Source of the DNA: Candidatus Shapirobacteria bacterium
Lineage (GTDB): Bacteria > Patescibacteriota > Microgenomatia > UM-FILTER-40-11
Length of the DNA: 64,000 bases
Assembly (NCBI GenBank): GCA_020059745.1
Contig: JAGVBK010000004.1
Coordinates: 306,511-370,510 of the forward strand
Reading direction: 5' to 3'
A program made the position numbers and the translations under genes. Below are positions 527-22,288 of the stretch, piece by piece. The stretch's first letter is position 1. Each line of letters opens with the position of its first letter. The notes below the pieces were generated by a model. That model saw only the letters and a program-made list of their open reading frames with translations, was not told the DNA's origin and made no database searches.

Positions 527-529
527 AAA

Positions 530-4457: not shown

Positions 4458-4480
4458 GGAAAACGGAAGGATGCAAAAAA

Positions 4481-5959: not shown

Positions 5960-5981
5960 TGAATGGTATATAATTTCCCAT

Positions 5982-7313
5982 ATGAATAGAACTTTGGTTT
6001 CTGAAACCACCGCAAAAATCGGAGAAGAAGTGCTTGTAAAAGGTTGGGTCAACACGCGAAGGGACCATGGAAAAATCATTTTCATTGATTTAAGGGATAA
6101 AACAGGCTTGGTCCAGGTAGTTTTTGTTGACAGCCAAAAAGCAAAGGAATTAAGACCCGAATGGGTGGTTGAAGTAAAAGGGGTGGTTAAGCAAAGACCG
6201 GAAAAACTTATTAACCCAAGGCTTGGAACCGGCAAAATTGAAATCGAGGCCAAAGAGCTTAATATTTTGGCCAAATCAGAGGAGCTTCCTTTTGATACCG
6301 GAAGCGAAGAGCTTAATGTCAGCTTGCCGGTTTTGCTTGACTTCCGGCCTCTAAGCTTAAGACATCCCAGAAACCGGGCTGTTTTTAAGGTTCAGGAAAC
6401 AATTATTGCTTCTTTCCGGGAAGTGCTTCGCGAAGAAAGTTTTACTGAAATTCAGGTTCCCACTATTGTTCCCAGTATTACCGAGGGAGGGGCGCAGGTC
6501 TTTAAGATTAAATACTTTGACAAAGAGGCTTTTTTAGCCCAGTCGCCACAGCTTTACAAGCAAATCATGGTGGGAGTTTTTGAGAGGGTTTTTACTCTGG
6601 CACACGCTTACCGGGCTGAGCCTTCTGTTACCACTCGGCACGTGACTGAGTATGTGGGTTTGGATGCAGAAATGGGGTTTATCTCCTCTTTTGAAGACAT
6701 CATGGACACGGTTGAAAAAGTAATCAGAAGAATTTTTGTTAACCTTGAAAAAGAAAACAAAGAAGAACTATCAATGTTTAACGCCACTATCCCGAAGCTT
6801 TCTTCCAAAATTCCCCGGATAAAAATGAGGGAAGCCCAAGAAATAATTTTCAGAAGAACCGGCCGCGACAATAGAAATGAGCCTGATCTTGAGCCTGAAG
6901 ATGAAAGGGAAATCTGCCGCTACAGTATGGAAGAATATGGCTCTGAGCTTGTTTTTATTACCCATTATCCAACTAAAAAAAGGCCTTTTTATACTTTTCC
7001 TGACCCGAAAGATCCTGAGTATACGGAAAGCTTTGACCTCATTGGCCGGGGATTGGAATGGGTAACCGGCGGCAGAAGAATTAATGATTATGAAATGTTG
7101 GTTGAACACATTAAAAAATGGGGTAACCGGCCGGAGGATTTTGAAATTTATTTGCAAGCCTTTAAATACGGCATGCCGCCCGAAGGAGGCTTTTGTTTAG
7201 GGGCGGAGAGAATAACCATGCAGGTTTTAGGTCTTGAAAATGTTAGAGAAGCAAGCCTTTTCCCCAGAGACATGGAAAGAATTGATCTTAAATTACCCAA
7301 AAAAGAAGAATAA
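5982..7313 (+). CDS. aspS: Aspartyl-tRNA synthetase, archaeal/eukaryal-type (probably non-discriminating)
   Basis: N-terminal OB anticodon-binding domain, class II motif 2 (FKIKYFDKEAFLAQSPQLYKQ), motif 3 (GGFCLGAERITM), and a C-terminal …FPRD typical of archaeal-type AspRS. The start was chosen at the ATG at 5982, after the rel stop. Confidence 0.8.
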   Translation: MNRTLVSETTAKIGEEVLVKGWVNTRRDHGKIIFIDLRDKTGLVQVVFVDSQKAKELRPEWVVEVKGVVKQRPEKLINPRLGTGKIEIEAKELNILAKSEELPFDTGSEELNVSLPVLLDFRPLSLRHPRNRAVFKVQETIIASFREVLREESFTEIQVPTIVPSITEGGAQVFKIKYFDKEAFLAQSPQLYKQIMVGVFERVFTLAHAYRAEPSVTTRHVTEYVGLDAEMGFISSFEDIMDTVEKVIRRIFVNLEKENKEELSMFNATIPKLSSKIPRIKMREAQEIIFRRTGRDNRNEPDLEPEDEREICRYSMEEYGSELVFITHYPTKKRPFYTFPDPKDPEYTESFDLIGRGLEWVTGGRRINDYEMLVEHIKKWGNRPEDFEIYLQAFKYGMPPEGGFCLGAERITMQVLGLENVREASLFPRDMERIDLKLPKKEE

Positions 7314-7314
7314 A

Positions 7315-8313
7315 ATGGAAAGTAAGAAGCTCCTTTTCCTGCAAAAATCAAAAAAGACAAAAAAAGAAGACAAAAAGTCTTTGGCCAATTCTTTTTTCTT
7401 TCCTCTTTTAAGTTTATGGATAATCCTTGTTTTACTTTTTTTAGGCTCAAAAATAATCAAGGCTGAGCCGGAAATTGTTGGAAAAAAAGAGGCCCTTGGC
7501 TTTAGGCAGCTTTTACCTTCACCAATGCCTTATCCAGTTAACCGGAAAGTTTCTGTGACCCCGGAAGTAAGTGCAAAATCAATTTACATTATTGATTCAG
7601 GCTCAATGAGAGTCCTTTACGAAAAGAATCCGGAGGAAAGACTTTTTCCCGCTTCGACTACAAAGATAATGACTGCCCTTGTTGCTCTTGAGCATTACCG
7701 TACAGACCAGATTTTGAAAGCCGGAAACACCGAAGTTGAGGGTAATGTAATAGAGCTTGAGCCTGAGGAGCAGATGTCGGTTGAAAACCTTCTTTATGGG
7801 CTTCTTGTTGGTTCTGGTAATGACGCTGCCTTTGCCTTGTCTGAAAATTATCCCGGGAAAACCCCGGGCTTTGTTGAGGCGATGAACAGAAAAGCCCAGG
7901 AAATAAACCTTAAAAACACGCGGTTTACTAACCCGGTAGGTTTTGATGAACCCGGGCATTTTTCAACTGCCAAAGATCTGGCCTTGCTCACGGCAGAAGC
8001 AGTTAAGAACCCGGTTTTTTCAAGGATTGTGGCCACTTCGGGTCTAACCCTTACGGACGTTTCCGGTACCAAGACCCATTATCTTAAAAATACAAACGAG
8101 CTTATTGGACAAGTGGAGGGAGTGGTTGGAGTGAAAACAGGCTGGACAGAAAACGCAGGGGAGTGTTTAGTTAGTCTTGCTGAGAGAAAAGACGCTAGGG
8201 TGATTTCCGTTGTTCTTGGCAGTACTGGCCGTTTTGAAGAATCAAAAAGTCTAATTGATTGGACCTTTCAGAACTTTGACTGGGTTTCTATTCTACCAGC
8301 CAGCTATCACTAA
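7315..8313 (+). CDS. D-alanyl-D-alanine carboxypeptidase (S11 peptidase / low-MW PBP)
   Basis: SxxK (ASTTK), SxN (SGN) and KTG (KTGWT) motifs in the canonical order. N-terminal TM anchor. Start ATG at 7315, immediately after the aspS stop. Confidence 0.75.
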   Translation: MESKKLLFLQKSKKTKKEDKKSLANSFFFPLLSLWIILVLLFLGSKIIKAEPEIVGKKEALGFRQLLPSPMPYPVNRKVSVTPEVSAKSIYIIDSGSMRVLYEKNPEERLFPASTTKIMTALVALEHYRTDQILKAGNTEVEGNVIELEPEEQMSVENLLYGLLVGSGNDAAFALSENYPGKTPGFVEAMNRKAQEINLKNTRFTNPVGFDEPGHFSTAKDLALLTAEAVKNPVFSRIVATSGLTLTDVSGTKTHYLKNTNELIGQVEGVVGVKTGWTENAGECLVSLAERKDARVISVVLGSTGRFEESKSLIDWTFQNFDWVSILPASYH

Positions 8314-9337
8314 CAGCGGGAACATAAGCAATAAAATCGTTATCTCCCTCAAAAACAATTACCGGCTGCAAATAAGTTTGCGGCTTTTCGCTTTCATAAT
8401 AAGCAAGGTAAGCATTTCTGATAACTATTTTTCCTTCAGGATTATTCCCTAAGTTGGCAATAAAACCCTTGCCCCCAATCAGGGCAGACCAGGCGGTTTT
8501 GGTGTCTTTAAGCGGATAGGTGGCAAAATTGTTTTCTGAAATAGGGTAATGGTAATACTTAGCGTCAATAATTCCCTTGTTGTGGGCAGAAGAAGAAATA
8601 AGCAGGGAAACATTGGCGTCTTTGGGGTTAGGAGGTAAAATCTTAAGACCCTCAAGTTCTTTTCTGAATAAATTGACTTTGGCAAAAACTGACTCATGAT
8701 AAATGGAATTTACCAGGTTTCCGTTTAGATATTTGAGAAAGATAACTTCGCTTTCGCCTTCCATTAATTCTTTGGTTAAAACATCTGCGCCTTGAAGAAA
8801 GCCCCTTGCTGTTGAGATGGCCTGGGTGTCATGAGGAGGAGACCCCCTGGAAAGGATTTCAATGTCGTTTTTCCAGTCATAAGAAAGCTGAAAGTTCCGG
8901 GTCAAACAGTCAACCTCTAAAGTAGTTTTGGGAACCGTGTCGGTTGAGAATCTAAAAAAATACTGGTCTATTTCTAAAGGCTCTTTGTTAAAGCCCAGCT
9001 TTTTAGCCCAAAGTCTGGTATTTTCTTTGGTGGAGAAATTGGGTGACGGTTGGGGGATAAAAAAGACTTTTGCTTGGGTGGGCAAGCTGGGCAAAGAGCC
9101 GGAAATTGTTTCCAGCTTAAAGTTTAAAGTGGGAAGGTTTTGCCTTTCCGGAAAAGTAAGCTTAGGCAGTTTGCCAAAAGCTACGGTTGGTGGCGGTGGC
9201 GGTGGCGGGTGGGTCTTTTTCCAGTAGGCCTGAAAAGTTAAAAACAAAAACCTTAAAAAAAGCAAGGCAACGATAGCAGCAGAACCAAACTTAATTGTTT
9301 TTCGGGAATAGTAAGCGGTTTCTGTTAAAGTAGCCAT
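8288..9337 (-). CDS. Hypothetical membrane-anchored extracytoplasmic protein with poly-proline linker
   Basis: 349-aa ORF with an N-terminal TM helix and a P8 tract encoded by (GGTGGC)n. No recognisable catalytic motif. Confidence 0.45.
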   Translation of the reverse strand: MATLTETAYYSRKTIKFGSAAIVALLFLRFLFLTFQAYWKKTHPPPPPPPTVAFGKLPKLTFPERQNLPTLNFKLETISGSLPSLPTQAKVFFIPQPSPNFSTKENTRLWAKKLGFNKEPLEIDQYFFRFSTDTVPKTTLEVDCLTRNFQLSYDWKNDIEILSRGSPPHDTQAISTARGFLQGADVLTKELMEGESEVIFLKYLNGNLVNSIYHESVFAKVNLFRKELEGLKILPPNPKDANVSLLISSSAHNKGIIDAKYYHYPISENNFATYPLKDTKTAWSALIGGKGFIANLGNNPEGKIVIRNAYLAYYESEKPQTYLQPVIVFEGDNDFIAYVPAVSDSWLVE

Positions 9338-9417
9338 TTTTTAAAGATAGAGAGTATTTTGAGTATAGCTTTGCTTCATGGTAAAATCAAGGCTATACAT
9401 ATTTATTTTAATGAAAA

Positions 9418-10830
9418 ATGGATAAGATAAAAACCCGTTTTGCTCCCAGTCCGACCGGTTACCTTCATATCGGCGGCTTAAGAACCGCTCTTTATTCTTT
9501 TGCTTTTGCAAAAAGCAAAGGCGGGAATTTTCTTTTAAGAATAGAAGACACCGACAGAAGCCGCTTTGTTCCTGGAGCAACAGAAAGAATTTATGAAATA
9601 TTAAAAATATTTAACCTTAACTGGGATGAGGGGCCTTTAGTGGGCGGGCCAAACGGCCCGTATGTTCAGTCGGAAAGAGCAAAAGAAGGTATTTACCAAA
9701 ATTTTGCCCAAAAACTGGTTGATGAAGGCCATGCTTATTATTGTTTTTGCCCTCCTCAGACAAAAGAGGAAATCAAAAAAGAACATGAAGGCAAAAAAAT
9801 AAGCTTAAGAGACGAAGCTTGCCGCAGCTTAAGCAAAGAAGAGATTGAAAAAAAGCTTAAACGAGGTATAAAACCGGCCATTCGGCTTAAGGTTCCTGAA
9901 AAAGAGAAAATCTCTTTCAAGGATTTTGTCTTGAGGAAAGAAGTTACCTGGGAATCGGAAAATATTGACGAGGTAATGCTTCTTAAATCTGACGGTTTTC
10001 CCACCTATCACCTGGCGGTAGTGGTTGATGATTACCTTATGGGAATAACTCACATTATAAGAGGCAGAGACTGGCTTCCCAGTACGCCTGTTCACCTTCT
10101 GCTTTTTAAATACTTAGATTTCAGCTTGCCCGAGATAGGACACTTGACTGATATCTTAGATCCTGGCGGCGGCAAGCTTTCCAAAAGAAAAGGCACAGTT
10201 TCCGTGGAAGAGTTTTTGAAAGAAGGTTACCTGCCGGAAGCGCTTTTAAACTTTATCATGTTATTAGGCTGGGCGCCTAAAGATAATCGGGAGATTTTTT
10301 CCCTTAAGGAGTTTGTGGAAAACTTTGAAAAAGGGGATTTGCAGATCTCAAATCCGGTTTTTAACCGGGTTAAGCTTGACTGGTTTAACGGCCATTACAT
10401 CAGACAAAAGGCTGATGAAGAATTGGTCTCTTTGCTTGAACCTTTTGCGCCAAAAGATGCGGAAAGAAAAACTATGCTTAAGATAACTTCTTTAATTAAA
10501 GACAGACTGGTTAAACTTTCTGATTTTAAAACCTATACCGGCTTTTTCTTTGAAACCCCGGAAGTTGATCCTTGTCTTTTTAAGGATTTGCCATATAATG
10601 AGCACCTAAGCGAGGCGGTAGCTGCTCTTAAAGAAATCGAAAATTGGAATAACGAAGAAATTCAAAAAACATTAGGAAAACTGATTGAAAAAAAAGGTTG
10701 GAAAACAGGGGACTTTTACATGAGTTTCCGCGTTGCTTTAACCGGCAGCAGGTTTACCCCTCCTGTCACCGAGTCTGCGGAGATACTCGGCAAAGAAGAA
10801 ACGCTTAAAAGACTTGAGAATCTTCTTTGA
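9418..10830 (+). CDS. gltX: Glutamyl-tRNA synthetase
   Basis: HIGH motif (PSPTGYLHIGG) and KMSKS-type motif (KLSKR). 470 aa, class I catalytic core. Confidence 0.9.
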   Translation: MDKIKTRFAPSPTGYLHIGGLRTALYSFAFAKSKGGNFLLRIEDTDRSRFVPGATERIYEILKIFNLNWDEGPLVGGPNGPYVQSERAKEGIYQNFAQKLVDEGHAYYCFCPPQTKEEIKKEHEGKKISLRDEACRSLSKEEIEKKLKRGIKPAIRLKVPEKEKISFKDFVLRKEVTWESENIDEVMLLKSDGFPTYHLAVVVDDYLMGITHIIRGRDWLPSTPVHLLLFKYLDFSLPEIGHLTDILDPGGGKLSKRKGTVSVEEFLKEGYLPEALLNFIMLLGWAPKDNREIFSLKEFVENFEKGDLQISNPVFNRVKLDWFNGHYIRQKADEELVSLLEPFAPKDAERKTMLKITSLIKDRLVKLSDFKTYTGFFFETPEVDPCLFKDLPYNEHLSEAVAALKEIENWNNEEIQKTLGKLIEKKGWKTGDFYMSFRVALTGSRFTPPVTESAEILGKEETLKRLENLL

Positions 10831-10927
10831 CATAGATCTTCAGGCTCATTTTTAAACTTATAGTCTTTTGTTATTTTAATTACTGAAAATTTAGCAGTTT
10901 TGCAATAAAGTATGGTAATCACAAAAG

Positions 10928-11563
10928 ATGGAAAAACCTGATTTTGAAACAATTTTTGAAAGCCTGACTCCTGTTAAACTTTTTAAAGGAGATAAAATCG
11001 GCAAAAACACAGAAGGTAATCTTCTTACCTACATTAAGTCAGGTTATGTTCGGCTTTACACTGTTTTGGCAAGCGGAGAAGAAGTGACTCTTCATATTTT
11101 TAAGCCGGGTCTTTTTCTGCCTATTTTGACTGATAAAATTATTCCCGGAAAGTACACCCTTGAAGCCTTAACTTCGGTAGAGGTTTATGAAATTTCTGAA
11201 GACGACCTTGCCAAGCTGGGTATTTCTAATCCTGAAGCGGTGGTACCATTGTTGAGGGTTGGTTTTGAGGGTGTTGAGGAACTTTTTGACCGTATTGAAT
11301 CGCTGGCTTCCGGCGATGCTTATACCAAAGTTGTTTCTTTTTTCTGTCTGCTTTTTAATAATGAAAACGGTTCAAAAAACTTAAAACCAGGTTTTCCTTT
11401 AACTCATCGGGTTGTGGCCAGCCTTACCGGTTTAACCCGGGAAACAGTAACCATTCAAATGCTTAAGCTTAAGAAAAAAGGTCTTATCGTTGGTAAGGGC
11501 AGGAATTTAATGATAAAAGACCTTGAGCTTTTGAGAAAAGAATGCCCTCTCTCTGAAGAATAA
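10928..11563 (+). CDS. Crp/Fnr-family transcriptional regulator (cNMP-binding-like + HTH)
   Basis: N-terminal beta-roll cNMP-binding-like fold. C-terminal HTH (RVVASLTGLTRETVTIQMLKLKKKGLI). Confidence 0.55.
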   Translation: MEKPDFETIFESLTPVKLFKGDKIGKNTEGNLLTYIKSGYVRLYTVLASGEEVTLHIFKPGLFLPILTDKIIPGKYTLEALTSVEVYEISEDDLAKLGISNPEAVVPLLRVGFEGVEELFDRIESLASGDAYTKVVSFFCLLFNNENGSKNLKPGFPLTHRVVASLTGLTRETVTIQMLKLKKKGLIVGKGRNLMIKDLELLRKECPLSEE

Positions 11564-11620
11564 AACTTCGTATCTTTAATTTAAGCCTCATTTTTGGTAA
11601 AATTAGCCATAGATTTCTTT

Positions 11621-11694
11621 TGCCCGGTCGTCTAACGGTAGGACTTCAGATTCTGGATCTGACTATTGGGGTTCGAATCCCTGCCGGGCAGCCA
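11621..11694 (+). tRNA. tRNA-Gln (anticodon CTG), CCA encoded
   Basis: Cloverleaf with a U1-A72 acceptor stem (UGCCCGG/CCGGGCA), an anticodon stem-loop UCAGA-UUCUGGA-UCUGA (anticodon CUG), a GGGGTTCGAATCCC T-arm, discriminator G and an encoded CCA. Confidence 0.8.
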
Positions 11695-11785
11695 GTATAT
11701 GCACCCAAGGTGACTCGGGTGCCTCAAATAGCCCTTCTTATCTTTTCAAATCGCTATTTTCAGAAGCGAGGATTATAACCGTTCT

Positions 11786-12364
11786 TTGCCCTCAAAAATC
11801 CTCCGTTCGAATCTCTACTTTGGTGTGTTTATAGGATATAATTATCCATATATGGTTAAAAAATTCTCTGTAGGGTACGTTGTTATTATTGGAGCCCTTC
11901 TTGTTCTCGGAATTGCTGGTTTTTTCTGGCTTAACAAGCCAAATGAAGAAAATTTTAAGGCTCCGGGAAGAGATTGGAATTCACCTAAAAAGGTTGAGGA
12001 TTACTTTATTGAAAGATTAAGGATGACGCCCCAGGAAGCCTCTGAAATCAGATCAAAGCCAGGAGTTGACGGAACAGTTGATTTAAGAATAAGCACCAAT
12101 GTTACCCTGGAAGGACTTGTCGGAAATCTTTATTATTACGGTTTTGTACGAGATGAAGACACTCTCCGGTACGCTTTAGAAAATACTCAAGATACTACTC
12201 CGAGTGAAAATGCAATAAAAGCTGGCAAAAGCGGAACGATTGATACGAATGCTGAATACAGAATTTCTGAAGATATGACAACCTGGGAGATTGCAGATAT
12301 TTTATTAAATAAGCCATCCGGTCATTTTAGTTATGATGAGTACGGCTATTTCTTTATGCCTTAG
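11786..12364 (+). CDS. Hypothetical membrane-anchored protein, possibly a YceG/MltG-like N-terminal domain
   Basis: TM helix (VVIIGALLVLGIAGFFWL) followed by ~140 aa. Weak resemblance to the MltG N-terminal region. The real start is probably the internal ATG (MVKKFS…). Confidence 0.3.
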   Translation: MPSKILRSNLYFGVFIGYNYPYMVKKFSVGYVVIIGALLVLGIAGFFWLNKPNEENFKAPGRDWNSPKKVEDYFIERLRMTPQEASEIRSKPGVDGTVDLRISTNVTLEGLVGNLYYYGFVRDEDTLRYALENTQDTTPSENAIKAGKSGTIDTNAEYRISEDMTTWEIADILLNKPSGHFSYDEYGYFFMP

Positions 12365-12893
12365 TCTTTTTGGAATTTTCTGGGGGTTCGTTTCCAGAAA
12401 ATCTTTTAACATAGTCGATCCATGTTTTTTTAGATGGAACTATTTCTTTGTGGAGCATGCCAATAGTTTCCATTCCGCACATAAATAGCTGCCCTAAGGC
12501 CTCATCGTAAGAGTGGTTTTTAAAATCTGAATTTAACGGTTCTTTAAAGTTTAACCAATTATGAACTACTGAATTTCTCTCTTTTCGGTATTTGTGTAGT
12601 TGTAATTTCAGGTTTTTACTAATAACTTTTGCCTTGAATAAATAATCTATAACAGATGCAAAAGATCCCTCCTTGGGGTTTTTAAGAATCTTGTTATATT
12701 TTTCTGGCTGTTTTGAAACATTGCAATAAATAAAATAGCCTAAAAAAGTTAGCCCCTCAATTAATGACACTAACTCAAAGTTAGCTCCAGTCTTTGACTC
12801 GAGAAAAAGTTTTCTAAATGTTGTAGGAGTATAGTCTCTATAAGGGACGCCTCCTTTATCATTAATTTTTATCGAAAAGTTATATTGATTCAT
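12354..12893 (-). CDS. HEPN-like protein (Rx4H motif)
   Basis: 179-aa ORF. Contains RNSVVH (R-x4-H), the signature of HEPN RNase domains, near a predicted helical core. Divergent from the R-M/OLD operon. Confidence 0.4.
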   Translation of the reverse strand: MNQYNFSIKINDKGGVPYRDYTPTTFRKLFLESKTGANFELVSLIEGLTFLGYFIYCNVSKQPEKYNKILKNPKEGSFASVIDYLFKAKVISKNLKLQLHKYRKERNSVVHNWLNFKEPLNSDFKNHSYDEALGQLFMCGMETIGMLHKEIVPSKKTWIDYVKRFSGNEPPENSKKTKA

Positions 12894-13169
12894 AATATAA
12901 GGAAATTATATATCAAACGCTTTATTCGAGAGGAGCTCCGCAGACCTCTTTATTATGAATGTAAAGTTGTTTCCCGAACACTTTAGTGATTTCTCTTTTT
13001 TCTTCATCCGTGCCGTTTCTTAGAATGTGTTGGGCAAATATTAATAGCTAGAGACAAGAAGGATTTAAGGGACTGGTATTTAAGTTGAGATTTTTTTCTG
13101 AATTTCAGCGAGATTTTTAACTTCTATGTTCTTCCAATTTTGCCTCAAAAGTGCTAGGATTTAAGTCAT

Positions 13170-14873
13170 ATGGCACAAGATTATAGCAATTGGACCAAAG
13201 AGGATCTAATTGAAGAAATGAAGCGCTTAAGAAAGCGTAAAAAATACGGTTTAGTTTGGGAAGATAAGCCAGAAGATGTAGTTGAGCAATGCAAAAAAGA
13301 ACTTCCAGTTCTAGAAGAAGTTAAAGATAAAGAAATTTCCACAGATTCAGATAAACCAGTCAATTTGTTAATAGAGGGCGACAACTTCCATGCGCTTTCT
13401 GTATTGAACTACACTCACAAAAATAAAATTGATCTCATTTATATAGATCCTCCTTATAATACGGGCGCAAGAGATTGGAAGTACAACAACGACTATGTCG
13501 ACATAAACGATGTTTTTCGACACAGTAAATGGATTTCAATGATGAGCAATAGGCTCAAAATTGCAAAAAATCTACTGAAAAGAGATGGTGTTTTAATCTG
13601 CACAATTGATAAAAATGAAAATGCAACATTACTCCTATTACTTGAGGAACTTTTTCCTGCATATGACGTAACAACAGTTGTTATAGAACATAATCCAAAG
13701 GGTTTACCTAGTAGCAATTTTTCCTATTCACACGAATACGCTCACTTTGTTATTCCCAAAGGGTTGTCAGTTATTGGTAAAAACCCTGCGACGAAAGAAG
13801 ATACAAGAAATTTAAGAAGGGCGGGGCGAGCATCATATAGAACAGAACGTCCTACTATGTTTTATCCAATATATATTAAAGATGGGAAAGTGAAGCGGAT
13901 CGGCCCCATTCCTGAAGCATCATTCCATCCTGGGAAACGATCAATTTTGAAAGATAATGGAGAAATCGAGATTTGGCCGATTGATGATAGAGGAAAAGAA
14001 AGAAGATGGCATTTCGGGTTAGATTCAATTGAAGATCATATTGAGAGAATAGGAGTAAAAGAGAAAAACGGCGACTATCAACTCTATGTAACCGCTGTTC
14101 CTGCTAGATATAAGACTGTTTGGACTGGTGGAGATTTGGATGCTGGTAAATATGGCACATCACTTGTGAAAGAGATTATTGGGAAAGAATTTCCTTTCCC
14201 AAAGTCACTATATGCAACCGCAAAATGTTTAGAAACTGTTGTATACAAAAAAGAAAATGCAACAATTTTAGATTTTTTTGCAGGATCAGGAACTACTGGC
14301 CATGCAGTCATGATGATGAATCAACAGTATGGAGGGAGCAGAAATTTTATTTTATGCACAAATAATGAACTTAACGGCCAAGAAAAGGAATTAAGGGAAA
14401 AAGGATTGACTGAGCAAGAAATTCAGGAGTATGGAATTTGTCGTGCAGTTACGTACCCCAGAATAAGGAAAGTTATTGAGGGTTATAACAATACTAAGGG
14501 AATAAAAGCTAATCTTAAATATTTTATAACCTCTTTTGTTCCAGCAGATCCAACAGATAAAAATAAGATCGAATTAACCAAAAAAGCAACAGAGATGTTA
14601 TGTATTAAAGAAGATACCTTTGAGGAAGCTGAATTCAAAGAAAAGTTTAAGATATTTAGAAATAAAAACCACTATACGGGAATTATTTTCGATCATCAGG
14701 CTATAGACGACTTCAAAAGGGCCATTAAAGATATTGATGGCAGGTTTAGTGTATATGTATTCTCATTGGGTGATGATACTTTTGATGACGAGTTCGCAGA
14801 CATTAAAAATAAAGTTAAGTTATCGCCTATTCCTGAAGCAATATTGAGGGTTTATAGAAGAATATTTAAGTAA
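13170..14873 (+). CDS. mod: Type III restriction-modification system methyltransferase (Mod); beta-class N6-adenine/N4-cytosine MTase
   Basis: Motif IV DPPY (IYIDPPYNTG) precedes motif I (FFAGSGTTGHAV), i.e. the beta-class order typical of Type III Mod. 567 aa with a central variable (TRD) region. Followed by a Res gene. Confidence 0.85.
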   Translation: MAQDYSNWTKEDLIEEMKRLRKRKKYGLVWEDKPEDVVEQCKKELPVLEEVKDKEISTDSDKPVNLLIEGDNFHALSVLNYTHKNKIDLIYIDPPYNTGARDWKYNNDYVDINDVFRHSKWISMMSNRLKIAKNLLKRDGVLICTIDKNENATLLLLLEELFPAYDVTTVVIEHNPKGLPSSNFSYSHEYAHFVIPKGLSVIGKNPATKEDTRNLRRAGRASYRTERPTMFYPIYIKDGKVKRIGPIPEASFHPGKRSILKDNGEIEIWPIDDRGKERRWHFGLDSIEDHIERIGVKEKNGDYQLYVTAVPARYKTVWTGGDLDAGKYGTSLVKEIIGKEFPFPKSLYATAKCLETVVYKKENATILDFFAGSGTTGHAVMMMNQQYGGSRNFILCTNNELNGQEKELREKGLTEQEIQEYGICRAVTYPRIRKVIEGYNNTKGIKANLKYFITSFVPADPTDKNKIELTKKATEMLCIKEDTFEEAEFKEKFKIFRNKNHYTGIIFDHQAIDDFKRAIKDIDGRFSVYVFSLGDDTFDDEFADIKNKVKLSPIPEAILRVYRRIFK

Positions 14874-14879
14874 ATTTTT

Positions 14880-15521
14880 ATGAAAAAGAAAAAACAAACG
14901 ATAAGCAAGGAATTGAGGATGCCTCATATATATCGAGAGGATTTGGAAAAGATAGAAAATCTTATTTTAAATGAACTAAAGCCGAGAGAGTATAAAATTG
15001 AAACCAATGAATATGAGTATGAAAAGGTAGAACAATTGCAAAAAGACTTGGGAACAGCGGTAGACTTGCATGTCCAAACTTATACTCCCTACTTGAGTAT
15101 AGATTTTAATAAAAATAGTGCCAGAGTATATTCTGGCGATGACGATTTAAAAACCATGGGAGCATTTGATCAAATATTCTCAATTCTGTCTAAGAAAGAG
15201 AGAAGGGTTTTGTATTATCTATCGAAAGTTTCCGTATGGGTTGCTCCAATATTATTTTTTGCTCCTATCCGTGCGCTTGCGGAAATTGACAAAGTCGATA
15301 ACCCGAAACTTTGGGTAGTACTCGGTGTTGTACTAGTAAGCGCACTCTGGTGGGTTATCGGTTTTTACTCATCTCTTTATAAATTCTCAATAATCGATTT
15401 CACTTATTTAAAAGAGAAGCCAAACTTTATTGTACGCAATAAGGATCAAATTATTCTCGTGGTTATTGGAGCAATAATAGGGGCTATTGCAACAATTGTT
15501 TTTAATAAGATACTTTTTTAA
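14880..15521 (+). CDS. Hypothetical membrane protein inserted between mod and res
   Basis: 213-aa ORF. Hydrophilic N-terminal ~110 aa, then 2-3 predicted TM helices (VWVAPILFFAPI…, LWVVLGVVLVSALWWVIGF…, IILVVIGAIIGAIATIVF). Lies 6 bp after mod and 3 bp before res. Confidence 0.5.
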   Translation: MKKKKQTISKELRMPHIYREDLEKIENLILNELKPREYKIETNEYEYEKVEQLQKDLGTAVDLHVQTYTPYLSIDFNKNSARVYSGDDDLKTMGAFDQIFSILSKKERRVLYYLSKVSVWVAPILFFAPIRALAEIDKVDNPKLWVVLGVVLVSALWWVIGFYSSLYKFSIIDFTYLKEKPNFIVRNKDQIILVVIGAIIGAIATIVFNKILF

Positions 15522-15524
15522 GCT

Positions 15525-17750
15525 ATGCAATTAAAAGACTACCAACACACAGCTATTAAAAAACTATTAGCCAGAAGCAAAGAGCTTTTGGCCCAAAGTG
15601 GCGAGAAAAAAATCATTTTCAAAGCCCCTACAGGATCAGGCAAGACAATCATGATGGCCGAGTTTTTGAAACAGATGGTTGATGACTCTGAGATAAAAAC
15701 TCCGCTGTCTTTTATCTGGACGGCTCCCCGAAAACTACATACTCAAAGCAAGGAAAAGTTGGTTAGGTATTTTGACACTACCAGGGCTATCGAGTGTTCA
15801 GATTTTGAGGAATTAACTGATAAGCAGATCGGTGAGAATGAGATTTTATTTTTGAATTGGGAGAGTATCAACAAAAAAGACAAAAATACCATTGTCAAAG
15901 AGAATGAGAAAGAGTTTTATTTAGGCAAAATTATCGAAAACACCAAAGACGAGGACCGAGAGGTTGTGTTGGTTATTGATGAAAGTCACCATCACGCCAC
16001 TAGTGAAATATCCCACAGCCTTATAACGGATATTGGGCCGAGATTAACCATAGAAGTGTCAGCAACACCAGTTATTCAAGATCCCGATGAGATTGTATCC
16101 GTGCCACTTGAGGATGTCAAGATGGAGGGAATGATAAAGAAATCTGTCTTACTAAACCCGAATTTCAAAAATGTTCTTTCTGGCGACAATGTTACCTCTG
16201 CTCTAGCCGACGGGACCGACATGATGGTGCTTGAGGAAGCATTGAAGAAACGTACAGAATTGGTAAAAGCATATCAAGATGCGGGGATTAACGTTAACCC
16301 ATTACTGCTCATTCAACTTCCAGATAGAAAAACACAGCAAGAGGATTTAATAAAAGACGAGATCATCCGACACCTAAAAGACAAACACGGAATGACGACT
16401 GAAAACGGACGTCTGGCAATATACCTATCTGAGGAAAAAGAAAATCTTGAGAACATATCGAAAAATGATCAGGAAACCGAAGTGCTTATTTTCAAACAAG
16501 CGATTGCTCTGGGTTGGGATTGCCCTCGTGCGCAGATATTAGTGCTATTTAGGGATTGGAAGAGTTTAACATTCTCAGTGCAAACTGTTGGCCGAATTAT
16601 GCGCATGCCCGAGCCAGACATGGGTCACTATGAAAACGAAATTCTCAATTTTGGATATGTCTACACTAATTTAACCAATATCGAAATTAAAGAAGATATG
16701 GCTAGAAGCTATGTCACCATCTACACCAGCAAGAGGATTGATAGCTACAAACCATTGGAACTTACCTCTGTGTATCGTTTGCGACATCGCGAGAAAACAC
16801 GCTTAAGTCCGTTGTTTATTCGTCTATTCCTAGAGGAAGCCAAAGAGTACAAGCTAGAAGAAAAAATTGAAACCAAAGGGCAAAAACTAGAGTTGACGTT
16901 TATATCTGATTATCAGGCTGGTGGTGTGGATCAATTAATTAATGCAGAAATCCGGGGAGAAGCCAAGATTGATACGGAAAACGAAACTGATCTGCAAAAG
17001 CTGTACGATTTCTTCGTTAGAAACAACCTCACCCCTTTTTATCCAGAGGATCGTTCTATTGGTAGGGTTAAAGAGGCCATCTACTACTTTTTCAAAGAAC
17101 AGTTAAAGATGGATTACGGCAAGTATTTTGCCGAGATCATTAATATTGTTCTTAGCGAGAAAAACAGGCAACATTTCGTCAATGTCATTGATAAAACTAA
17201 AGAGCGGTATATTGCCGAAACCCAAAAGCGAGAGGCTAAACTACAACAATTATCGGATTGGGAGGTGCCACAACAGCTCAACTACGGCGGGGATTATGTT
17301 GCTCTTAAAGTCGGCCGATCGGTAATGACTCCTTTTTATTATGACAACCGCTGGAAAACAGAGGAAGCATTTATCAAGTTTTTAGAACAATCAAACCAGA
17401 TTGAATGGTGGTTTAAGAATGGAGATAGAGATTCAACATTCTTTGCCGTGCCGTATATGGAAAATGGCAATCAAAATCCTTTTTATGTTGACTTTATTGT
17501 TAAGTTTAAGAACGGCACGATAGGGTTATATGACACCAAAGGTGGCAGAACAATTAAGGATGCTAAAGAGAAAAGTGATGGGTTACAAGATTACATTGGG
17601 GCACAAAATAAAAAGGGTAAAAAAATGGTTGGCGGGATTGTGGCGAATACTAACTCAAGGGACTACTCGGGTAGATGGGTTTGTTACAAGGGCCAGAGCA
17701 GCGATCTTGTGCTAGATAATTTCTCTAACTGGGAAACGTTGGAATTATAA
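15525..17750 (+). CDS. res: Type III restriction enzyme Res subunit (SF2 helicase-like ATPase + C-terminal endonuclease)
   Basis: Walker A (KAPTGSGKT) and a DEAH-like box (LVIDESHHH). C-terminal nuclease-like motif (…VKFKNGTIGLYDTKGG…). 741 aa. Confidence 0.85.
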   Translation: MQLKDYQHTAIKKLLARSKELLAQSGEKKIIFKAPTGSGKTIMMAEFLKQMVDDSEIKTPLSFIWTAPRKLHTQSKEKLVRYFDTTRAIECSDFEELTDKQIGENEILFLNWESINKKDKNTIVKENEKEFYLGKIIENTKDEDREVVLVIDESHHHATSEISHSLITDIGPRLTIEVSATPVIQDPDEIVSVPLEDVKMEGMIKKSVLLNPNFKNVLSGDNVTSALADGTDMMVLEEALKKRTELVKAYQDAGINVNPLLLIQLPDRKTQQEDLIKDEIIRHLKDKHGMTTENGRLAIYLSEEKENLENISKNDQETEVLIFKQAIALGWDCPRAQILVLFRDWKSLTFSVQTVGRIMRMPEPDMGHYENEILNFGYVYTNLTNIEIKEDMARSYVTIYTSKRIDSYKPLELTSVYRLRHREKTRLSPLFIRLFLEEAKEYKLEEKIETKGQKLELTFISDYQAGGVDQLINAEIRGEAKIDTENETDLQKLYDFFVRNNLTPFYPEDRSIGRVKEAIYYFFKEQLKMDYGKYFAEIINIVLSEKNRQHFVNVIDKTKERYIAETQKREAKLQQLSDWEVPQQLNYGGDYVALKVGRSVMTPFYYDNRWKTEEAFIKFLEQSNQIEWWFKNGDRDSTFFAVPYMENGNQNPFYVDFIVKFKNGTIGLYDTKGGRTIKDAKEKSDGLQDYIGAQNKKGKKMVGGIVANTNSRDYSGRWVCYKGQSSDLVLDNFSNWETLEL

Positions 17751-17756
17751 GAATCT

Positions 17757-19559
17757 ATGAAAATCAATAAACTAATTCTGGACAATTTTAGAAATTTCCA
17801 GGATAAGATTGCTGTTGATTTTAATAGCCTTACAGTTGTTATTGGGAAAAACGATTTAGGTAAATCTACTATTCTCGAGGCATTGGATATATTTATCAAT
17901 GAAGGCTCCTCTTTAGTCAAGCTTGATAAAGATGACGCGTGTAAAAGATCTCAATCAGATGAATTTTCGATAGGCGTTGTTTTTTCAGAGTATCCTGAAA
18001 GAGTTGATATTGACGAAGGCAACCAAACTTCTTTGGAAGATGAGTATCTATTAAACCGAGACAGTTTATTGGAAATTCATAAGCATTATAAAAATGGAAA
18101 ATGTACTGGTGTTTATATTCACGCATTGCACCCTACTACTGAAGAAGCAAAAGATCTATTACTAAAAAAGCAGCAAGAGTTAAAGAAAATCGTTGAAGAT
18201 AATGGCTACGCTTGTGACAACAAAACAAAAAATGCCTCTTTACGTAAAGTCATACGAGAAGGTGTTGGAGATTTAAAGTTAGAAGAAATTGATATACCTG
18301 TTAACGAAGAAGATGCTAAAAGGATATGGGGAAAACTACAAACTTATTTGCCAGTATATGCATTGTTCCAGTCCGATAGAGCAAATAAAGATGAGGATCG
18401 AGAAGTCCAAGATCCGATGAAATTAGCGATAAAAGAAATATTACAAAAGGAAGATTTGCAGGAAAAACTAAGAGGTATAGCTAATGAAGTTGAAGAGATT
18501 TCTAAAGAGATTGCACACAAGACGCTTGAAAAATTGGCCGAAATGAACCCTGATATTGCTAGAGAGCTTAAACCAGTTATTCCTCCATGCTCTGACTTAA
18601 AATGGGATTCTGTTTTTAAGAATATTGAGATATCAAGCGATGATGGTGTGCCGCTAAATAAACGTGGAAGCGGTGTTAGAAGGTTAGTTTTGTTAAACTT
18701 TTTTAGAGCAAGAGCGGAAGAACAAAGGAATCTAGACTCAAAATCAAATGTAGTGTATGCAATCGAGGAGCCAGAAACATCACAACACCCCAACCATCAA
18801 AAGATACTTATCAAAGCACTGAAAGATTTGGCCGATCAAGAAGGAAGACAAATTTTTATAACGACACATAGTCCTTCGTTAGTTCAATTGTTACCAAAAG
18901 ATTGTGTGCGCTTGTTATGCAAGAAAGACGGAAATCTTGAAATTATTAGTGGAGACTTGGCAATTTCAGACATAATAGACGATTTGGGTGTTCTTCCAAT
19001 AATCGGTAAGGTTGCAGTCTTTGTTGAAGGAGAAACTGACAGAGAGTTTCTGCTAAATATCGGTGCAATAAACGAGTTAAAACAAATTATTGATATTAGT
19101 AAGATCTCAATAATACCGCTTGGTGGAAGCACGCTTGAAAGATGGATAAATAGAAACTATTTAGACGGATCAAATATTGTTGAATTTCATCTATATGACA
19201 AAGACAGTGATGAAAAGTACAAAGAAGCAGTAAGCAAGATCAACGAAAGAGCCGACAACTCAAAAGGGCAGTTAACGAAATCGCTAGAAATTGAAAATTA
19301 TATTCATCCCTCGCTCGTTGAAGGATGTGATAGGCTTTCTAGTATTTCATGCACTTCGATAAAAAGCCAGTGGAAGAATAAAGACATACCTCAATTTGTC
19401 TCGCAAAAAACTGGGATTGACGAATTGGTAGTAAAAGAAATTCTTTGTTGCTCTCTATCAAAGAAGATGAATAAGCAATTGATGGAGGAGATTAACATTT
19501 GGGATGAGGTTGAAGGTTGGTTTGAAAGTGTTAAGAGTATGACTGAGCAAACAAGATAA
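17757..19559 (+). CDS. OLD-family ATP-dependent endonuclease (ABC-type ATPase + Toprim)
   Basis: Walker A GKNDLGKST. OLD-type Walker B/D-loop (VVYAIEEPETSQHP). C-terminal Toprim (VFVEGETDREFL … YDKDSDEKY, giving E…DxD). 600 aa. Confidence 0.85.
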   Translation: MKINKLILDNFRNFQDKIAVDFNSLTVVIGKNDLGKSTILEALDIFINEGSSLVKLDKDDACKRSQSDEFSIGVVFSEYPERVDIDEGNQTSLEDEYLLNRDSLLEIHKHYKNGKCTGVYIHALHPTTEEAKDLLLKKQQELKKIVEDNGYACDNKTKNASLRKVIREGVGDLKLEEIDIPVNEEDAKRIWGKLQTYLPVYALFQSDRANKDEDREVQDPMKLAIKEILQKEDLQEKLRGIANEVEEISKEIAHKTLEKLAEMNPDIARELKPVIPPCSDLKWDSVFKNIEISSDDGVPLNKRGSGVRRLVLLNFFRARAEEQRNLDSKSNVVYAIEEPETSQHPNHQKILIKALKDLADQEGRQIFITTHSPSLVQLLPKDCVRLLCKKDGNLEIISGDLAISDIIDDLGVLPIIGKVAVFVEGETDREFLLNIGAINELKQIIDISKISIIPLGGSTLERWINRNYLDGSNIVEFHLYDKDSDEKYKEAVSKINERADNSKGQLTKSLEIENYIHPSLVEGCDRLSSISCTSIKSQWKNKDIPQFVSQKTGIDELVVKEILCCSLSKKMNKQLMEEINIWDEVEGWFESVKSMTEQTR

Positions 19560-19562
19560 CTT

Positions 19563-20330
19563 ATGAGTCAATATTACAATCCAAACAGAACAAGAAATAT
19601 TTATGATCCAAAATCTAGCGAGTTGTTTCGCCTGAGTCGTGGAAAGATAGACAATTTCATTACGTGCCCACGTTGTTTTTATCTTGACCGGAAACTGGGA
19701 ATTGCTCAGCCTCCCGGATATCCTTTTTCTCTTAATTCCGCTGTCGATAAACTTCTCAAAAAAGAACTTGATATTCACCGAGCAAAGGGGACACCACATC
19801 CTTTAATGAAAACTTACGGTGTCGATGCAATTCCTTTAACTCACGAAAAAATTGAAGAATGGCGGGATTCGCTAAGGGGAGGGATTACTTTCAGGATAGA
19901 AGGAAGTAATGTCGTGGTAACCGGCGGAGTTGATGATATGTGGATTAATCCCCAGAGTGAATATATTGTTGTTGACTATAAAGCAACTTCCAAAGAAGAG
20001 GAAGTAACTTTAGATGCCGACTGGCAGATTGGCTATAAAAGGCAAATGGAAATTTACCAGTGGCTTTTCAGAAAGAACGGTTTTGCGGTTTCTTCGACTG
20101 GTTATTTTGTTTATTGCAATGGCAATACAGATAAGGAAGCCTTTGATGGAAAGTTGGAATTTGATATTAAGATTATTCCCTATTTAGGAGATGATTCTTG
20201 GGTTGAAAATACCATTCATGATGCAATTGATTGCTTAAACAGTAATGAGATTCCGGCTCCTGGGGCAGATTGTGATTACTGCCGGTATGTAGAAGCGGTT
20301 AGAAAAATTGATGAGGTTGCTTATGCTTAA
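19563..20330 (+). CDS. Cas4-like PD-(D/E)xK nuclease with a 4-Cys (Fe-S) cluster
   Basis: N-terminal CPRCFYL motif (as in Cas4/AddB), D…(IVVDYK) PD-(D/E)xK core, a QMEIYQWL (QxxxY) motif and a C-terminal CDYC pair. 255 aa. Begins 3 bp after the OLD gene. Confidence 0.65.
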   Translation: MSQYYNPNRTRNIYDPKSSELFRLSRGKIDNFITCPRCFYLDRKLGIAQPPGYPFSLNSAVDKLLKKELDIHRAKGTPHPLMKTYGVDAIPLTHEKIEEWRDSLRGGITFRIEGSNVVVTGGVDDMWINPQSEYIVVDYKATSKEEEVTLDADWQIGYKRQMEIYQWLFRKNGFAVSSTGYFVYCNGNTDKEAFDGKLEFDIKIIPYLGDDSWVENTIHDAIDCLNSNEIPAPGADCDYCRYVEAVRKIDEVAYA

Positions 20331-20709
20331 AAAAATTGAAACTGCCGATGAGTTTATTAAGAGGAAAACTGATGAGTTTTCTAAAAATAAATTAATTGAA
20401 ATAAAAGATATCGGTCGAAGCGGAAAACATTTTTTAGCTCGTGAAGCTTGGACTTTTATGCCACAAGGGAATTTGGGTGATAAAGTGTTTGTTATCGAAA
20501 GGTTTAGAAAAGAATCAACTGAAGGAAAAATTGCGTACACAGATTCCTGGAAGAAAGGAGATATTGAGTACCGCATCGGATATTTCATTATTGGGAAAAT
20601 TGGTAAAGCGGCTGGAAGATGGGTCTGGGGACAATATTGCCCTTTGATTCCTCATGAAGATTTAGATAAATTATTATCCAAAGCAAGGCAAGAAGGAACA
20701 CTTCTTTAA
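20323..20709 (+). CDS. Hypothetical small protein, last gene of the R-M/OLD/Cas4-like operon
   Basis: ~129-aa ORF overlapping the Cas4-like stop by 8 bp (ATG at 20323; the ORF track used an upstream TTG). No recognisable motif. Confidence 0.45.
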   Translation: MLKKIETADEFIKRKTDEFSKNKLIEIKDIGRSGKHFLAREAWTFMPQGNLGDKVFVIERFRKESTEGKIAYTDSWKKGDIEYRIGYFIIGKIGKAAGRWVWGQYCPLIPHEDLDKLLSKARQEGTLL

Positions 20710-20821
20710 ATTAAACGATTTTCGTATTTAGATAAAGAATCGAAATGAAAACAAAAAATTCTTTGAAAAACACCATGGAAGTGGGCGGTTAGTATGGGTT
20801 TATAGTACAATGACAAAATAG

Positions 20822-21745
20822 ATGAAAGAGTTACAGATTGTTTATTCGAATAATTATCTTAAATACGATCTTGGAGAAGACAATCCCATTTCCCGGGATA
20901 AAACTGGAAAGTTTTTACGATTTCTTAAAGAAGAAGGAAGCATTCCCTTCCGGGTGCATGAGGCACCGAAAGCAACCGATAGCGACATTCTTCTTGCCCA
21001 CACAGAAAGGTACTTAAACAGAGTAAGGCAGGCTGCGATAAATGGAGTCGAACTCGATCCTGATACTCCGGTTAACTTGGAAACATTAGAAGGAGCATAT
21101 TATATTGTTGGAGGAACAATTCTCTGCCTTAGTTTGGCTCTTGAAGACCAACGAGTAGTCAATATTATTGGAGGAATGCACCACTCTGGCTCATATTTCG
21201 GATCAGGATTCTGCATTTTTAACGATCATGCCATTGCTATTAGAAAGCTCCAGAAAGAAGGAAAAATTGAAAAAGTAACAGTGTATGATTTAGATGTACA
21301 TGCAGGACAGGGAACCCAAGAAATTTTTTATGAAGATCCTACGGTTTTGACCGTCTCTATCCATCAAGATCCCAATACTCTCTATCCGGGAACCGGGTTT
21401 GATTGGCAGAGAGGAAGAGGAGCTGGGCTGGGAATGAACATTAATATCCCGCTTCCCCCTGGAACTACCGAAGAAATATATCTTGAAGCTTTGGATTCAG
21501 TCTTGGAACAAACCAGAAGTTATACCTCTGATATGAGAGTTTTACTTTTGGGTGTCGATACTTATAAGGGAGATTTACTAGGCGGTTTCCGGCTAGAACA
21601 AGAAAGTTTTAGAAAAATTGGGGAAAGATTCCGTGATTTTCATAAATTAGCTGTTCTTTTCGGTGGCGGTTATTCAAGAAAAATTCCTGACTTGTGGATG
21701 AAATTTTTAGAAGGATACTTAGGAGTTCCTTCTCATATCGTCTGA
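20822..21745 (+). CDS. Histone deacetylase-family (arginase/deacetylase fold) protein
   Basis: HDAC motifs GGMHHSGSYFGSGFCIFND and DLDVHAGQGTQ (Zn ligands D-H-D). 307 aa. Confidence 0.8.
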   Translation: MKELQIVYSNNYLKYDLGEDNPISRDKTGKFLRFLKEEGSIPFRVHEAPKATDSDILLAHTERYLNRVRQAAINGVELDPDTPVNLETLEGAYYIVGGTILCLSLALEDQRVVNIIGGMHHSGSYFGSGFCIFNDHAIAIRKLQKEGKIEKVTVYDLDVHAGQGTQEIFYEDPTVLTVSIHQDPNTLYPGTGFDWQRGRGAGLGMNINIPLPPGTTEEIYLEALDSVLEQTRSYTSDMRVLLLGVDTYKGDLLGGFRLEQESFRKIGERFRDFHKLAVLFGGGYSRKIPDLWMKFLEGYLGVPSHIV

Positions 21746-22288
21746 CACGAGTTTTCTTATTTCTTCGGCTTTACTACTTTTATTCTGTTTTGCCTTTAAC
21801 TTGAGGTATTCATCTAACTCTCTTTCGATTTCTAAATTAAATCTGACGGTGGATTTATTTAACTCAACCCATTTGAGGAAATCCTCTATTATTTTTTTTA
21901 AATTTGTCTTTTTATATTTTTGTTTCTTTAAATATTTATAATAATTTGAACTAATAAAGAAATCGCTTAAGGGAGAATCTTCTACTTTATCCGAATCTTT
22001 AATTAAAAGTAACGTTGGAATATTCTTTTGAAGAGATAGAACTAGCTGCTGGCCGACTGCGGAGATATTATGCGAATATTCAAGAATTACCGCATCGGAT
22101 TCTTTAATGGCTTTTTCTGTCAGTTCATACATTTTGCTGACAGTTATTTCCTTATTACCTTTTATTTCTTCGTCAATCCAGTCTCTGGACAGTTTGTGTC
22201 CTAACAGGCATATTTGTTGACGTATTTTCAGATAATCTGTTTTGTTTTTTTTGAAACCCGGCAATGATCCCCCGAAAAAAACTTTCAT
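21719..22288 (-). CDS. Two-domain protein: N-terminal nucleoside 2-deoxyribosyltransferase-like (SLOG/Rossmann-like) domain fused to a C-terminal ribbon-helix-helix (CopG-like) domain
   Basis: N-terminus MKVFFGGSLPG … DAVILEYSHNISAVGQQLVLS resembles the NDT/TIR-like Rossmann motif pattern. C-terminus TVRFNLEIERELDEYLKLKAKQNKSSKAEEIRKLV is a canonical RHH beta-strand plus two helices. Confidence 0.4.
   Translation of the reverse strand: MKVFFGGSLPGFKKNKTDYLKIRQQICLLGHKLSRDWIDEEIKGNKEITVSKMYELTEKAIKESDAVILEYSHNISAVGQQLVLSLQKNIPTLLLIKDSDKVEDSPLSDFFISSNYYKYLKKQKYKKTNLKKIIEDFLKWVELNKSTVRFNLEIERELDEYLKLKAKQNKSSKAEEIRKLVSDDMRRNS

Follow-up and report, generated by a model that had tools for sequence, protein, structure and literature searches.

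Class 1 OLD nucleases have been defined as lone genes lying away from other defence genes (PMC10568477), and two of them have been described as working as single proteins: P2 OLD is a tRNA nuclease that is activated when RecBCD is inactivated (PMC12445682), and Vc OLD is a DNA nickase whose defence is reported to be independent of RecBCD (PMC12392090). Defence genes are also known to gather in hotspots, such as those of E. coli, Vibrio, Pseudomonas and P2/P4, in which variable cargo occupies a fixed position beside a tRNA and a conserved gene, with recombinases in the vicinity and mosaic cassettes of decoupled histories (PMC9122126, PMC10121019). The locus described here, which shares all of these hotspot features, belongs to a stretch of 64,000 nucleotides (nt) from Candidatus Shapirobacteria bacterium (assembly GCA_020059745.1, contig JAGVBK010000004.1, positions 306,511 to 370,510 of the forward strand; hereafter the window). 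Its interval 11695-19559 is probably an ordinary island made of a Type III restriction-modification (R-M) system and a class-1-like OLD gene, situated beside a conserved PD-(D/E)xK nuclease gene that anchors a defence hotspot. This hotspot departs from the known ones in having a nuclease gene as its anchor and in a cargo that invariably points the same way as this gene and reaches up to its start codon. A limited literature search revealed neither a Patescibacteria hotspot of this kind nor a named system combining OLD and Cas4.

The open reading frames (ORFs) between 13170 and 20709 all lie on the plus strand and are separated by 3-6 nt or overlap. Together with the tRNA gene on the left, the following features make up the locus (lengths in amino acids, aa):

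11621..11694, plus strand: tRNA-Gln(CTG), found with ARAGORN and Rfam; left border of the island
13170..14873, plus strand: Type III R-M methyltransferase (Mod), 567 aa; Pfam N6_N4_Mtase, PADLOC MTase_III
14880..15521, plus strand: predicted membrane protein, 213 aa; hydrophobic C-terminal segments read from the sequence
15525..17750, plus strand: Type III R-M restriction subunit (Res), 741 aa; SF2 helicase and C-terminal PD-(D/E)xK nuclease
17757..19559, plus strand: OLD-family nuclease, 600 aa; ABC ATPase and Toprim
19563..20330, plus strand: PD-(D/E)xK nuclease, 255 aa, 3 nt after OLD; right border of the island
20323..20709, plus strand: small conserved hypothetical protein, 128 aa from the publicly called ATG at 20323, or 133 aa from a TTG at 20308

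The last three of these genes had been grouped by a first-pass annotation into an OLD-class defence module with a Cas4-like partner and a small accessory protein. Their positions and the 3-nt gap between OLD and the nuclease were borne out, whereas the grouping overlooked Mod and Res, which lie upstream on the same strand with gaps of 3-6 nt and of which Res co-varies with OLD.

Relatives of the cassette and the decoupled history of the nuclease gene

Related loci were fetched through either the nuclease or OLD and are denoted by L-numbers, L001-L085 being the nuclease loci. OLD proteins at least 70% identical to that of the window are present in L086 (92%), L087/88 (82.5%), L099 (81%), L098 (75%), L089 (74%), L090 (74%) and L110 (70%). 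In all of them but L090, Res lies directly upstream of OLD wherever upstream sequence exists, and the nuclease gene lies downstream wherever downstream sequence exists; Mod is also present in those relatives whose contig reaches far enough. In L090, OLD stands alone behind a small HTH_17 gene. The block of Res, OLD and nuclease was found in six contigs (L086, L087/88, L089, L098, where only a partial end of Res is seen, and L099).

Within this block, Res and OLD co-vary, their identities to the window being 93/92, 91/82 and 79/74% (Res/OLD) in L086, L087 and L089, respectively. The nuclease follows another course: between the window and L086 it is only 77% identical, against 93% for Res and 92% for OLD; between L086 and L087 it is 90% identical against 83% for OLD; and between the window and L098 the values are 61% for the nuclease and 75% for OLD. 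Over all pairs, OLD and nuclease divergence are uncorrelated (Spearman rho 0.02). Near-identical nucleases accompany different cassettes, namely Mod-Res-OLD in L086 and GmrSD in L008, and this nuclease was never found beside OLD homologues of at most 55% identity (Bacteroidota, Firmicutes and others). Elsewhere, OLD stands alone (L090, L092 and L097) or belongs to a DISARM-like island in Bacteroidota.

These data bear directly on the proposal of a dedicated system, and a new OLD class, composed of OLD, the Cas4-like nuclease and the 133-aa protein. The proposal can draw on the 3-nt gap between OLD and the nuclease gene, on the overlap of the latter with the small ORF, on the persistence of the OLD-nuclease pair in six contigs from the nearest OLD clade, and on OLD being the commonest single Pfam type directly upstream of the nuclease (5 of 74 loci). 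Against it, the three genes do not co-occur, the small ORF is missing from all related loci and is conserved in unrelated contexts, more than 80 kinds of upstream neighbour accompany the nuclease, Res rather than the nuclease co-varies with OLD, and the OLDs abutting the nuclease gene share only 25-45% identity among themselves, a sign that they arrived separately. The nuclease is also missing from the system models of PADLOC, which gave only weak Cas4 matches to it. Such a system is therefore considered highly improbable. What survives of it is the association of OLD and nuclease within one OLD clade (at least 70% identity); its supposed new class resolves into a resident nuclease gene, a class-1-like OLD and the genes of a Type III R-M system, all of them known parts, and cataloguing the combination as a new system would not be justified.

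The small ORF belongs to a family of Microgenomates proteins of about 125-140 aa (319 clusters in HMMER searches at E<=1e-3) that has no Pfam or PHROG match. It occurs in none of the approximately 140 loci related through OLD or the nuclease, and its homologues sit in unrelated neighbourhoods. Judged from this distribution, it is a resident gene unrelated to the island and takes part in no module with OLD.

The DNA identity between the window and L086 across the OLD/nuclease junction falls gently, from 0.80-0.86 to about 0.75. A recombination breakpoint at this junction was considered and rejected, as neither a sharp step nor a mosaic 5' end was seen. Separately, in L094-L096 (Bacteroidota, approximately 389-12863), a 46%-identical OLD lies between a PLD-SNF2 helicase, an Eco57I-like methyltransferase and a large DEAD helicase. 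This arrangement is similar to a DISARM island, and the PLD-SNF2, methyltransferase and OLD genes of L009 are similar to it.

Distribution and conservation of the nuclease gene

A scan with one genome per species identified at least 564 species with the nuclease (63-81% identity), nearly all of them Patescibacteria; this figure is bounded by the search patterns of the scan and does not give the prevalence across all Patescibacteria. More than 8000 protein clusters match the nuclease, and the best 120 of them are all 76-84% identical. Where record titles were informative, identities were 75-81% in Microgenomates groups and WWE3, and 63-71% in Paceibacteria, Saccharibacteria, Berkelbacteria and Doudnabacteria. 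In the same genome pairs, the nuclease is more conserved than every other shared protein, for example 66 versus 48% for BipA and 65 versus 37% for GltX.

In a neighbour-joining tree of the nuclease, loci with usable taxon names mostly cluster by name. Since placeholder titles are common among the records, the agreement is based on a minority of loci; records titled 'uncultured Gammaproteobacteria' (binchicken assemblies) were counted among these placeholders and were not used as taxonomy. A survey of 74 sampled species loci revealed 84 Pfam families in the gene directly upstream of the nuclease, including housekeeping neighbours such as YceG, SNase-cyclophilin, BipA, mannosyltransferases, transketolase and glycosyltransferases. 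In several lineages, stable housekeeping synteny extends on both sides (glycosyltransferase, SecDF and M16 peptidase).

Taken together, the nuclease gene is probably an independent, vertically inherited resident gene of Patescibacteria that serves as the anchor of the island and not as a dedicated partner of OLD, a judgement that forms part of the one given above for the island as a whole. The view of the nuclease as the partner of OLD was not upheld, given the absence of correlation and the existence of OLD genes without it, both among the homologues of at most 55% identity and in L090. A phage origin of the nuclease was also considered, since PHROG 31195 matches it at 1.5e-14, and was rejected: only two weak matches were found among 2.9 million viral contigs of IMG/VR.

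Defence genes upstream of the nuclease gene

Defence neighbours were tallied from the neighbour-joining tree for the approximately 33 loci of the Microgenomatia-type clade that contains the window. At least 19 of these loci have a defence-type gene immediately upstream of the nuclease; in each case the two share a strand, and the gap is usually 1-6 nt. The genes in this position were as follows:

OLD: L009, L012, L027, L031, L038
OLD and UvrD (Gabija-like): L020
UvrD: L001, L017
GmrSD: L006, L008, L018
PHP-SMC ATPase: L003, L019
Shedu: L013
AlbA_2: L016
HsdR: L010

One gene farther upstream, some type of R-M system is usually present:

Type I R-M: L003, L008, L010
Type II AlwI R-M: L031
EcoRI-type methylase: L027 (with GmrSD-HNH)
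Type ISP: L018, L038
PLD-SNF2 and Eco57I-like: L009
Type III R-M: L017, L019 and the window

Among the five other OLDs adjoining the nuclease gene, identity between one another and with the OLD of the window is only 25-45%, compared with 70-80% for their nucleases, which indicates that these OLDs arrived independently. A gene that is more conserved than translation GTPases appears in this way to mark a recurrent defence slot in Microgenomatia-type genomes, and uncultured, genome-reduced bacteria could be mined for defence systems with it as a simple anchor. This recurrent slot is the point most worth following, and it poses a testable question about the role of the nuclease.

The same pattern would also fit a nuclease that acts as a shared helper, a stand-in for RecB, AddB or AdnB that is tied to whatever defence module is co-transcribed with it. 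To our knowledge, Patescibacteria generally lack RecBCD. In one variant, the nuclease might finish DNA that has been cut or nicked; in another, it might be a guarded hub whose inhibition by phage triggers OLD. Several findings speak for such a role: the enrichment of defence genes upstream of the nuclease, all co-directional and tightly spaced; the repeated arrangement in which an R-M system is followed by an accessory ATPase or nuclease and then by the nuclease gene, seen with R-M types and OLD lineages that are unrelated; the UvrD-like helicases beside the nuclease in three loci, which recall helicase-nuclease pairs; the AdnAB nuclease domains as top structural matches; the activation of P2 OLD by RecBCD inactivation (PMC12445682); and the absence of a detectable plus-strand terminator between OLD and the nuclease gene. 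On the other hand, many lineages have the nuclease in a housekeeping setting where no defence gene adjoins it; defence components are not so highly conserved, nor do their trees agree so broadly with taxonomy; and a single gene serving at least eight mechanistically unrelated effectors would be unparsimonious. In addition, OLD homologues in other phyla, as well as L090, do without the nuclease, and the defence of Vc OLD is reported not to be RecBCD-dependent (PMC12392090). We therefore regard a helper role as a possibility to be entertained only tentatively. Its broadest form, in which the nuclease would be a RecB/AddB-like hub across Patescibacteria and the defence modules would work through it or watch over it, appears unlikely. 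Under that form, R-M, OLD, Gabija-like, PHP-SMC, GmrSD and Shedu genes would probably be co-transcribed with the nuclease, and, if it were true, the nuclease would be a core element that many defence systems of these reduced genomes have in common.

Signs of mobility and the borders of the island

The cassettes of L086, L087, L089 and L099 are flanked by HTH_17 genes and by large serine recombinases, all intact. In the window, a remnant of such a recombinase was detected with the protein of L087:

12934..13038, minus strand: C-terminal remnant of a large serine recombinase, about 35 codons, found by tblastn with the L087 recombinase

The match covers residues 399-433 of the 440 of the query (40% identity, 77% positives, E 1e-5); a weak sign when taken on its own, it suggests a decayed integrative element. 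In L087, an element carrying a serine recombinase, R-M genes and OLD begins directly after tRNA-Gln, and the tRNA regions of the window and L087 are 84% identical at the DNA level. Because of the flanking recombinases, the remnant and the shared tRNA-Gln border, 11695-19559 looks like a decayed integrative island. The element would once have been mobilised by a large serine recombinase and would since have decayed between tRNA-Gln and the nuclease gene. Going by what is known of the families, Mod would methylate the host DNA, and Res would translocate along unmodified phage DNA and cut it; OLD may add a second, independent ATP-dependent layer, and the nuclease may have a housekeeping role of its own in DNA-end processing or recombination, with no need of OLD.

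It has also to be considered that the nuclease gene or its start might itself be the attachment site of serine-recombinase elements with defence cargo. Large serine recombinases are indeed found within 10 kb of the nuclease gene in L001, L010, L017, L045, L086, L087, L089 and L099, the window keeps its remnant, and the cassette clade shows the same 3-nt junction throughout. Moreover, in L022 (WWE3, MEVA01000001.1), about the last 60 nt of the 3' end of the nuclease gene (10690-10760) are repeated 810 bp downstream (11560-11625) at 92-95% identity, bracketing a small insertion with a 141-aa ORF on the minus strand. This repeat looks like a duplication of attachment (att) type at the 3' end of the nuclease gene, which indicates that elements can insert at this gene; the window, unlike L022, has no duplicate of its nuclease 3' end. 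On the opposite side, no sequence motif is conserved upstream of the nuclease ATG across loci, no att-like repeats flank the island of the window or that of L087, and the recombinases lie on differing sides and at varying distances, most loci having none nearby. Targeting of the nuclease gene as a general explanation is thus judged quite improbable.

Several observations weigh against the preferred reading of an R-M and OLD island beside a resident nuclease gene. No att repeats surround the island, and the direct and inverted repeats in 11500-20900 and in L087 are at chance level; the insertion is suggested by comparison of related loci, among which there was no empty site in a near-identical genome. 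The defence gene upstream of the nuclease is co-directional with it in all of about 25 cases, usually at 1-6 nt or overlapping, and no recognisable plus-strand terminator was found between the two. Such tight, co-directional spacing resembles that of an operon and would be compatible with a functional link as well. Furthermore, the distance from the OLD stop codon to the nuclease ATG is always 3 nt in the OLD clade of at least 70% identity, even where the nuclease is 61% identical, and random independent insertions fit such a junction poorly. The bounded number of carriers given above is a further point of this kind. Owing to the strict co-orientation and the constant 3-nt junction, both a functional link and site targeting stay alive as explanations.

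The OLD protein

The first-pass annotation had assigned a full OLD signature to the 600-aa protein, and this assignment held: Pfam AAA_15 matches residues 1-376 (E 1.2e-82), and the motifs are invariant in 42 homologues. On the ATPase side, these comprise K36/S37 of Walker A and E337-E340 with H344/P345 of the motif IEEPETSQHP, so that Walker A, Walker B and the signature histidine of the ABC ATPase are all present. On the Toprim side, they comprise E424, D428, D481/D483 and E511/E513, which provide the catalytic Glu and DxD, while the Pfam Toprim models reach only E 0.005, below their cut-offs. The best PDB sequence match is the Thermus scotoductus class 1 OLD (6p74), and a Foldseek search with the AlphaFold model (pLDDT 83.5) placed 6p74 first, followed by GajA and retron-Eco8 OLD. 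A protein recorded from Candidatus Microgenomates is identical to the OLD of the window.

With class 1 OLDs (P2 Old, 6p74 and Vc OLD), the OLD of the window shares all catalytic residues and the lack of a UvrD or reverse transcriptase (RT) partner, none having been found within 10 kb on either side of the gene. It differs from 6p74 in having only about 15% identity in the structural alignment, and from class 1 in general in that it closes a Type III R-M operon and is co-inherited with Res, i.e., it is not isolated. By sequence and predicted structure, it therefore resembles class 1, yet it is chained to an R-M system. In Patescibacteria, OLD genes regularly follow R-M systems, whatever the type of the latter, which challenges the 'isolated gene' definition of that class.

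The remaining classes were considered and rejected. In Gabija (class 2), the PADLOC models and structures of GajA score close to those of class 1 on the OLD of the window, the length of which (600 aa) lies between the typical sizes of classes 1 and 2, and a true pair of OLD and UvrD occupies the same genomic position in L020. The OLD of the window, however, has no adjoining UvrD/PcrA-like helicase; its neighbours are the SF2 helicase (ResIII) of the Type III Res and the PD-(D/E)xK nuclease, and class 2 was dismissed for this reason. Class 3 (retron) was dismissed because no RT domain was found in the neighbours and no noncoding RNA either, only two tRNAs being found by Rfam in the window. In class 4 (PARIS), the ATPase (AriA) and Toprim (AriB) are separate proteins, whereas here they are fused in one unsplit ORF, and the AriA match from PADLOC covers the AAA_15 domain only.

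The Type III R-M genes

A methyltransferase (Mod) and a helicase-nuclease (Res) in one operon identify the system as Type III R-M. Mod matches Pfam N6_N4_Mtase (E 5e-23) and PADLOC MTase_III (E 2.9e-80), and Res matches Pfam ResIII (E 1e-20) and PADLOC REase_III (E 1.5e-16). The C-terminal part of Res corresponds to the NCBIfam BPTD_3080 restriction endonuclease, with the motif YVDF...LYDTK read from the sequence. The pair is like that of EcoP15I in its Mod/Res genes, with a ResIII helicase and a C-terminal PD-(D/E)xK domain; it departs from EcoP15I-like systems in the shortness of Res (741 aa), in the additional membrane-protein gene inside the system and in the OLD gene appended to the operon. 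The 213-aa membrane protein between Mod and Res has no family match and is found in the window only, being absent from the otherwise collinear cassettes of L086, L087 and L089.

Mod is 62/59/50% identical to its counterparts in these related cassettes and can be aligned at the DNA level at the ends of the gene only. Its middle part (13620-14500 of the window) has diverged while Res stays 79-93% identical, which fits a swapped target-recognition domain and a changed specificity.

The nuclease protein

Pfam PDDEXK_1 (PF12705) matches the nuclease over its full length (E 3.5e-12), and the protein has the D...(D/E)xK core of the PD-(D/E)xK superfamily. Against the Cas4 model TIGR00372, it scores 33.6 bits, with a cut-off of 65. 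A Foldseek search with its AlphaFold model (pLDDT 78.7) returned the AdnAB nuclease domains as best matches, together with Cas4 SSO0001, RecE, human Exo5 and Cas4 Pcal_0546, all at probability 1.0 with TM-scores of only 0.35-0.43. The catalytic residues (D124/D125; D138-Y-K140; Q161...Y165) and the cysteines C35, C38, C237 and C240, plus C185, are invariant in 36 homologues.

Cas4/AddB hallmarks had been attributed to this protein on the basis of its sequence. The profile match to PD-(D/E)xK, the fold, the D...D-x-K and QxxxY motifs and the four cysteines that bracket the domain are indeed shared with Cas4, AddB, AdnAB and Exo5, whereas the family score and the cysteine spacing are not those of Cas4. 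On the predicted structure, the nuclease is Cas4-like at the level of the fold and not of the family. It differs from Cas4 also in being a stand-alone protein of 251-255 aa that is extremely conserved and whose listed homologues, where the source name is usable, are all from the Patescibacteria group. The four cysteines had been taken to hold a 4Fe-4S cluster; their invariance agrees with this, but their layout is C35xxC38...C237xxC240 where the canonical order in Cas4/AddB is C...CxxC...C, so that an Fe-S cluster is plausible and Zn possible. No cas genes were found in the annotated 10 kb on either side, and neither CRISPR array-like repeats nor CRISPR RNA families were found in the window.

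Flanking genes and the downstream side of the nuclease gene

Besides the recombinase remnant, two ORFs lie between tRNA-Gln and Mod, and two genes follow the small ORF:

11786..12364, plus strand: 192-aa ORF of unassigned function with an N-terminal transmembrane segment; 179 aa in the public gene call
12354..12893, minus strand: 179-aa ORF of unassigned function; weak PADLOC PDC-S06 match (E 2e-4), no Pfam match
20822-21745: histone-deacetylase-family gene, after the small ORF
21719-22288: convergent 189-aa ORF of unassigned function, after the histone-deacetylase-family gene

The 192-aa ORF has no Pfam or PHROG match and was not found in the related loci; lying beside tRNA-Gln, it may be either island cargo or a resident gene. 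Its identification as a YceG/MltG homologue, which would have reflected an ancestral YceG-nuclease synteny as in L043, was dropped for lack of a Pfam match. The histone-deacetylase-family gene and the 189-aa ORF are near neither the nuclease nor OLD in any other locus. A scan of the plus strand for promoters and terminators revealed nothing informative.

The downstream side of the nuclease gene is varied in other loci. L013 has the order Shedu-nuclease-AlbA_2 (8785-12087) and L016 the order AlbA_2-nuclease-Shedu (8644-12150); as the same genes are held in opposite order, both flanks of the nuclease gene can take cargo. In L001 (5330-16756), the nuclease gene is followed by two LexA/S24-type repressors, a short FtsK/SpoIIIE, DUF5677 and SMODS (CBASS-type), which suggests that this side forms a larger mobile or defence region.

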